A stretch of DNA of 64,000 nucleotides from Candidatus Aenigmatarchaeota archaeon (GCA_039000725.1 JAWBNO010000002.1:2071-66070); one strand, 5' to 3'; shown: positions 33,026 to 33,119, counted from the stretch's first letter. Translations and numbers: made by a program. The notes: generated by a model from the letters alone, not told the origin.

Positions 33026-33119
33026 TTATCGCCATAGTTGAGCTTTATCGACCCAGCAACGATATCCAATTCATCCTTAGCAAAAAGCTATGTCATTGGA
33101 AAGTGACCCCAACTATGGT
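33026..33119 (-). other. BHB mini-intron 1 in 23S rRNA (94 nt, peptidyl-transferase region)
   Basis: Interrupts GUCGUG|AGACAGUUCGGUC. Fold: 4-bp helix GUCG/CGAU, 3-nt bulges UGA and AAA, 9-bp inner helix CCAUAGUUG/CAACUAUGG. Confidence 0.8.

Follow-up and report, generated by a model that had tools for sequence, protein, structure and literature searches.

The question raised by this locus is what becomes of 94 additional nucleotides that interrupt the GUGA tetraloop of helix 93 (H93) in an archaeal 23S rRNA gene. The gene lies on the minus strand at 32702..35997 of the window (the whole 64,000-nt stretch of Candidatus Aenigmatarchaeota DNA that was analysed) and matches the Rfam family LSU_rRNA_archaea with 2520.6 bits over model positions 1-2987. 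It measures 3296 nt against the 2987 positions of the model, and removal of four putative introns (b, c, d and e) together with one doubtful insert at 34137..34168 leaves 2990 nt. The archaeal bulge-helix-bulge (BHB) class of intron has been known since the 1980s, and the segment at 33026..33119 (minus strand), here called intron e, is very probably a member of it, residing in the 23S gene of a member of the Aenigmarchaeota (DPANN); its cleavage, the ligation of its exons and its release as a circle would be the expected consequences of the structure predicted from the sequence.

Alignment of the 3' part of the gene to the archaeal LSU covariance model (CM) places 95 nt where the model has 1, in the columns of the H93 hairpin loop and between the flanks ...GAACGUCGUG and GACAGUUCGG (the exon context can also be written ...GGGUUCAGAACGUCGUG / GACAGUUCGGUCGC...). 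A first-pass annotation of this DNA had delimited an AT-rich insert of 94 nt at 33026..33119 and had proposed such an alignment as a check on the insertion site; when it was run, exactly the same coordinates were returned, the insert fell in the H93 tetraloop, and its GC content was 0.41, compared with 0.585 for the exons. The site, which we take to be G2597/A2598 of E. coli, inside the H93 GUGA tetraloop and near A2602, was numbered by hand, and the 2597/2598 given previously fits the places that U2585, A2602 and U2609 occupy along the same string.

On the RNA strand the junctions have the layout ...AAC-GUCG-(UG^A)-CCAUAGUUGGG...CUCAACUAUGG-CGAU-(AA^A)-GACAG..., in which the bulges are in brackets and carets mark the predicted cuts. 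The central helix of 4 bp is formed by GUCG of the exon (33122..33125, minus strand) and CGAU of the intron (33028..33031, minus strand). The 5' bulge, UGA (33119..33121, minus strand), would be cut after UG, between 33120 and 33119, and the 3' bulge, AAA (33025..33027, minus strand), after its second A, between 33026 and 33025. This much of the earlier hand folding is borne out by the sequence, but the inner helix, for which 9 bp had been claimed, has 11 bp on recounting (11-12 bp in the BHB scan), its arms being CCAUAGUUGGG at 33108..33118 and CUCAACUAUGG at 33032..33042, both on the minus strand. The outer helix is, as had been said, weak: it consists of 1 bp (C-G), where the strict hBHBh' form has helices on both sides, and intron e therefore falls into the relaxed HBh' class, which is an accepted variant of the BHB (PMC5829648). 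Cutting after the second nucleotide of both bulges gives GUCGUG^AGACAG, which is the CM consensus, in agreement with the product predicted at the outset, and is also the sequence of those relatives that have no intron at this point. When the intron was shuffled and the exons were kept, a BHB with 4/4 central pairs, at least 3 inner pairs and a boundary giving the same product arose by chance in 68 of 20000 trials.

Relatives were sought by scanning metagenomes with a motif peculiar to the catalytic centre of this gene. The 22 contigs obtained (L128-L149) all proved to be 23S genes, with exons 77-93% identical to those of the window gene. An insert of 128-136 nt occurs at the identical point in 17 of them, and two, L133 and L148, are without it and read GUCGUGAGACAG straight through. 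The segment is thus no lineage-wide feature, and the lineage-conserved expansion that the first-pass annotation had named as the finding that would overturn an intron is not what was found, the site being uninterrupted in both of these genes. The 17-mer GGGTTCAGAACGTCGTG, which is the 5' exon sequence ending at the insertion site, is common in bacteria, and a scan of reference genomes with it gave 120 bacterial loci and no archaeal relatives.

For the analysis of covariation, 13 distinct intron sequences were aligned and counted on the BHB structure. The central helix was 100% paired in all 13, despite variation of the intron strand between CGAU, CGAC and CGGC, and it scored 4/4 in the 11 distinct introns of the BHB scan; both bulges are invariant across the relatives that carry intron e. 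The relatives build their inner helix from another sequence, CUGCAUGCGAAG/CUUCGCAUGC[A/G]G, which is nevertheless fully paired, and 6 of its 12 pairs have changed on both sides and still pair. Over the whole BHB structure 97% of cells were paired and 7 pairs showed changes on both sides, values that 0 of 500 shuffles reached, whereas sliding the partners against one another lowered the proportion of paired cells to 27-43%. The compensatory changes of the inner helix nonetheless represent few independent events, since most of them set the window apart from one fairly tight group of relatives.

Intron e does not stand alone, as CM alignment and a BHB scan identify at least four ORF-less BHB mini-introns in domains IV-V of the window gene, all on the minus strand. 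Intron b (33913..33959, 47 nt; CM insertion of 49 against 2) lies at about E. coli 1927/1928, with a GUCG/CGAC central helix and the bulges UAU and ACA. Intron c (33462..33544, 83 nt; CM insertion of 87 against 4) occupies an H84-like hairpin loop and has a CGGG/CCCG central helix, the bulges UCA and AAA, and an inner helix of 13 bp. Intron d (33240..33289, 50 nt; CM insertion of 52 against 2) is found in the loop of H89, with GCC(C)/(A)GGU as its central helix and ACA and AAA as its bulges; its fold has a z-score of -4.3, it is present in 22/22 relatives, and the mismatched fourth central pair becomes a proper pair (4/4) in the distant relatives L133 (GGGC) and L148 (GGGU). Whilst introns b, c and d occur in every relative that covers their sites, intron e is absent from two. 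In the relatives there are a dozen additional inserts, 78-940 nt in length, with 4/4 central helices, long inner helices and, in most cases, an AAA 3' bulge. The 23S genes of this lineage are unusually crowded with BHB introns, and splicing is the economical reading of intron e because the lineage must in any case splice many such introns from its 23S precursor.

An important consideration is whether the 94 nt might instead be kept in the mature rRNA, as an expansion segment forming a long arm stacked on an intact native H93. Both minimum free energy (MFE) folding and RNAalifold prefer a fold of precisely this kind, in which the native H93 (7 bp) is closed, AAA is bulged, and G-Y and U-R pairs (2 bp) lead into a long helix; the z-score of the whole region on MFE folding is only -0.75. 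The variation of the central helix at its two variable positions fits either fold, because GU is repeated in GUCGUG, and covariation in the inner helix would equally be expected of an arm with a structural role. The sister inserts b, c and d, being present in every relative examined, behave as expansion segments would, and the peptidyl-transferase centre of the clade is unusual already. However, L133 and L148 share that same odd centre and have no insert, and such an arm would take the place, in the domain V core, of a GNRA tetraloop that from established knowledge of the ribosome is only a few nucleotides from A2602. Above all, a retained arm gives no reason for an invariant 3-4-3 spacing, mostly with AAA as the 3' bulge, at many unrelated sites, and it is because this spacing is exact, invariant and recurrent elsewhere in the gene family that a BHB is favoured over a long H93 arm. 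Retention of the segment is therefore considered highly unlikely.

Another explanation, and one that is just as improbable, accepts the cuts at the BHB and supposes that the exons are then left unjoined, so that a fragmented 23S rRNA is held together by base pairing in the manner of the bacterial intervening sequences. Ligation and its omission look the same in a DNA sequence, and Pyrococcus is reported to drop helix 98 from its 23S rRNA, with a rearranged molecule as the result (PMC7758197). On the other hand, the archaeal ligase normally acts on the products of BHB cleavage, and those archaeal rRNA introns that have been described are spliced and circularised (PMC3326292). With at least four breaks in domains IV-V, including two in catalytic-centre helices, the core would be highly fragmented, and the exact restoration of a consensus tetraloop matters only if the ends are joined.

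The gene might also be an artefact or a pseudogene, that is, an assembly chimera or a decaying rRNA copy, and its separation from any 16S gene, its many inserts and the non-consensus bases of its catalytic centre could be read in that way. Such a reading is scarcely credible, as two independent Logan assemblies, SRR27730012 and SRR27730014, both match the window with 100% identity over the gene boundary and the region of the insert, because of which the insert sequence can be no accident of assembly; furthermore, the 22 metagenome contigs come from many samples and show the same architecture, exons of 77-93% identity and compensated helices, and a 112-kb contig carries the gene of one relative among ordinary genes. 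The least credible proposal is a self-splicing or degenerate group I or group II intron, or some other remnant of a mobile element unrelated to the splicing endonuclease, for although group I introns occur 4-5 nt away (LSU/2593) in other DPANN archaea (PMC6125680) and the site is within an I-CreI-type homing site (PMC6035192), 94 nt is far below the size of a ribozyme (at least about 200 nt for a group I intron with its P3-P8 core), there is no ORF, Rfam families gave no match to intron e at the gathering threshold or at E up to 10 beyond noise (E of at least 0.03), the group I model Intron_gpI gave none at either setting, and the group I models found no match in the 23S genes of 7 relatives.

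The preferred reading, that of a BHB intron, leads to a simple scheme for its removal. In the precursor, either while it is being transcribed or afterwards, CGAU of the intron would capture the exon sequence GUCG (E. coli 2592-2595 by hand numbering), which normally forms the top of H93, and the pairing would expose the bulges UGA and AAA, separated by four base pairs and adjoining the 11-bp intron helix. The tRNA/rRNA splicing endonuclease EndA would then cut after the second nucleotide of each bulge, and from the HBh' form of the substrate it would have to tolerate an outer helix that is nearly missing. Joining of the exons by an RtcB-type ligase would recreate the GUGA tetraloop of H93 beside A2602, and the intron would be released, probably as a circle. 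The exon junction predicted is ...GAACGUCGUG^AGACAGUUCGG..., and that of the circle ...UGGCGAUAA^ACCAUAGUUGG... (in short, ...GCGAUAA^ACCAUAG...). It has been described that in archaea the splicing endonuclease excises rRNA introns, which then become circles (PMC3326292), and that relaxed HBh' motifs need endonucleases of the (alpha-beta)2 or epsilon2 type or ones that bear a loop; in DPANN archaea EndA is of the alpha4, (alpha-beta)2 or epsilon2 type, and an extra loop, linked to broader specificity, is common (PMC5829648). A search of the approximately 50 ORFs of the window against NCBIfam and Pfam found no EndA, and an RNA 3'-phosphate cyclase (RtcA) gene is present at 51669..52685.

Introns of the BHB type have been reported from the 23S genes of Crenarchaeota, including Desulfurococcus mobilis, Pyrobaculum and Aeropyrum (Kjems & Garrett and later work), and both multiple and ORF-less examples have long been known there (PMC3326292, PMC4496867). 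Intron e resembles the crenarchaeal 23S introns in that it splits a highly conserved stretch of domain IV/V by way of a 3-4-3 BHB formed between exon and intron, the predicted cuts restore the mature sequence, and the expected products are spliced rRNA and a circular intron. Most of the crenarchaeal introns run to several hundred nucleotides, and several carry genes for LAGLIDADG homing endonucleases. Intron e, in contrast, has 94 nt, is ORF-less and cannot hold a homing endonuclease gene, is almost devoid of an outer helix, and is found in a DPANN host and in the tetraloop of H93. It shares with the short ORF-less introns of Thermoproteales 16S genes (PMC4496867) a small size, the conservation of BHB junction cores, the occurrence of several introns per gene and a patchy presence, but the gene, the phylum and the sites are different, and no K-turn or box C/D core is reported in that work. 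A literature search of limited reach turned up no account of a BHB intron at 2597/2598. Judged by its sequence, then, intron e is an archaeal BHB intron of the ordinary type at a new site, the H93 tetraloop, and in a new host phylum.

The rRNA introns that have been reported from DPANN archaea include a group I intron in an LSU gene of the Aenigmarchaeota and group I introns at LSU/2593 in H93 (PMC6125680). Intron e lies in the same helix as the latter and in the same 22-bp I-CreI-type target, CAAAACGTCGTGAGACAGTTTG (PMC6035192), being inside the central GTGA of that target, but the introns at LSU/2593 are self-splicing ribozymes of 300-800 nt, whereas intron e has no ribozyme core and its junction is 4-5 nt further 3'. 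With the relaxed HBh' introns of tRNA genes, which splicing endonucleases of broad specificity cut (PMC5829648), it has in common a central helix, one well-defined bulge-helix side, an inner helix and a weak or missing outer helix; it differs in that the substrate is a pre-rRNA rather than a pre-tRNA and that the BHB has to compete with a native rRNA helix. The tRNA-Trp intron, which is described as a box C/D guide RNA (PMC3326292), offers a further parallel, as intron e too is a BHB intron with a candidate K-turn module, and intron c has a whole C/D layout with guides that match its own exons. Unlike the tRNA-Trp intron, intron e possesses just a single C-like box, opposite a single D-like one, and no 12-nt guides, and it would work at most like a protein-binding K-turn and not as a guide.

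The context of the locus, with its fixed mini-introns, its box C/D-like intron and its non-consensus catalytic centre, is more interesting than intron e itself. Within intron e, a core of about 55-57 columns (33049..33105) is approximately 85% identical to the relatives, a figure close to that for the exons, compared with approximately 33% for the inner helix; the last third of the intron, at its 3' end, has diverged or been deleted. The centre of the core (33063..33102, minus strand) is K-turn-like on hand folding. The core helix is UUUCCAA(U)/(A)UUGGAUA, in which the pairs 30-36/63-69 include one compensatory pair, and it is accompanied by a tandem GA (33093..33094) opposite a second GA (33071..33072), a 3-nt bulge, GAU, and the hairpin CAUAGC-UUUUU-GCUAAG. 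A K-turn descriptor had one match, at the homologous place, in 13/13 sequences, and 4.2% of shuffled introns matched it also. Neither the GA dinucleotides nor the bulge varies, but the second pair of the C stem is an A.A or G.A mismatch, and RNAalifold gives an alternative register. The core looks like a K-turn and may be taken as a candidate, which as a hand reading is a lead rather than a finding.

The boxes of intron e, C-like AUGAAUU and D-like AUGA (AAGA in the relatives), for which the consensus sequences are RUGAUGA (C) and CUGA (D), resemble the C' and D' boxes of intron c. An interpretation of intron e as a box C/D sRNA was rejected, there being no D box after the C-like box and no 12-nt guides, and a search for complementarity between intron e and the 23S rRNA found none of more than 8 Watson-Crick pairs, with 12-mer scores at background. 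A K-loop in intron b (CUGA-5 nt-UGAU) was also considered and rejected, as its flanks pair poorly.

Intron c, by comparison, accommodates an entire box C/D layout within the inner helix of its BHB, with the boxes at 33481..33530 (minus strand) in the arrangement AUGAGAA-12-AUGA-UUUA-AUGAUUA-12-UUGA (C-12-D'-loop-C'-12-D). In three lineages the two spacers each measure exactly 12 nt, the box pairs between position 6 and position 1 are kept, and a relaxed C/D pattern had intron c as its sole match in the 64-kb window; Rfam gave no significant match to intron c. The guide at box D matches 10-11 nt of its own 23S rRNA (33322..33333), on the strand of H74 next to the catalytic centre, with one compensatory guide-target change in L133. 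That at box D' is weak and is directed towards the second G in the GGGG of the P-loop (33594..33605), Gm2251 by hand numbering. It is conceivable that the mini-introns, rather than being inert parasites, are RNP modules of the K-turn or box C/D type that act in cis on the precursor, intron c guiding 2'-O-methylation of its own exons and the core of intron e binding L7Ae, which would hold H93 and A2602 inactive until EndA removed the intron late in assembly, but this is doubtful and is offered as speculation. If it were true, immunity of the DNA to I-CreI-type homing endonucleases would be a by-product, because intron e splits their central GTGA.

A practical consequence of the crowding with introns is that the rRNA genes of the lineage will be mis-sized, assemblies broken, and primers and classifiers defeated unless the introns are removed. 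If splicing is confirmed, the lineage would be a good system in which to study the coordination between building a ribosome and clearing many introns out of its catalytic core. The inserts in the 23S genes of the relatives number up to about 12 per gene at about 15 different sites, most of them with clean BHB junctions, and the gene of L140 spans 6.8 kb (4387..11191). Several of the long inserts contain LAGLIDADG-like reading frames in translation. For the inserts of 840-880 nt near window-rRNA position 2813-2820 a boundary search found no clean BHB.

Two other segments of the window gene deserve mention. Insert a (34137..34168, minus strand, 32 nt; CM insertion of 41 against 3) is at the variable tip of a hairpin and can formally be drawn as a BHB intron (4/4), but this was rejected, as the inner helix in the BHB register is not kept in the relatives and the coaxial hairpin is; it is more likely to be a hairpin extension or expansion segment. 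An extra hairpin of 30 nt relative to the archaeal model (32820..32849, minus strand, at about model position 2882) is found in the 3'-terminal domain, in the region of H98, and helix 98 is the piece reported to be excised from Pyrococcus 23S rRNA (PMC7758197). It is a simple stem-loop in which the BHB scan found no convincing BHB, and is probably an expansion segment. The 3' arm of intron d, AGAUAGCGACAG, shows 11 nt of complementarity to CGGUCGCUAUCU (33004..33016, minus strand) in the exon immediately downstream of intron e, and its 5' arm is a repeat of GCUAUCUAC from that exon. This arrangement is kept in the main clade and not in L133 or L148, and may be due to chance.

The peptidyl-transferase centre departs from the consensus at positions that are usually regarded as invariant (approximately 33203..33224, 33308..33322, 33155..33172 and 33772..33790, minus strand). 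About 100 bacterial 23S genes containing GGGTTCAGAACGTCGTG were used as the reference for a normal catalytic centre, and the changed positions are invariant among them and appear as capitals in the archaeal consensus. By hand numbering, GGGG(G/A)UAAUGG replaces GGGGAUAACAG (C2452U, A2453G), GCGUAGCUGUCGG replaces ACCUCGAUGUCGG (A2497G, C2499G, C2501A, A2503C), and the A loop reads GGUGUCCAC (U2555C); further changes are G2576U and U2586C, and positions 2058-2059 are AG in the window and GU in the relatives. The changes in the centre are common to 22/22 relatives, but the relatives were found with that very motif.

The 23S gene is unlinked, no 16S or 5S gene having been found within the 64-kb window, and it is flanked by genes for a PINA-like ATPase and a HAD phosphatase. 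A comparison of synteny showed that this neighbourhood is not conserved in the relatives, whose PINA-like ATPase genes have no 23S gene adjoining them. The named homologues of the ATPase belong to Candidatus Aenigmarchaeota/Aenigmatarchaeota (64-81% identity), with one match at 66% labelled Candidatus Bathyarchaeia. Elsewhere in the window, two large adjacent genes at 40680..47637 (minus strand) resemble components of anti-phage defence: one encodes an SNF2 helicase with a phospholipase D-like domain, similar to DrmD of DISARM (E 1.5e-49, below the curated cut-off), and the other an adenine methyltransferase similar to PglX of BREX (E 1e-19, also below the curated cut-off). An archaeal RNase P RNA is encoded at 3627..3874 (minus strand, 113 bits), tRNA-Arg(CCU) at 40567..40643 (plus strand), and a tRNA cut off by the end of the window at 63913..64000 (minus strand). 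The tRNA(CAU) gene at 29076..29177 (minus strand) contains a 29-nt intron at 37/38, so that the same organism also has a tRNA intron of the ordinary type.
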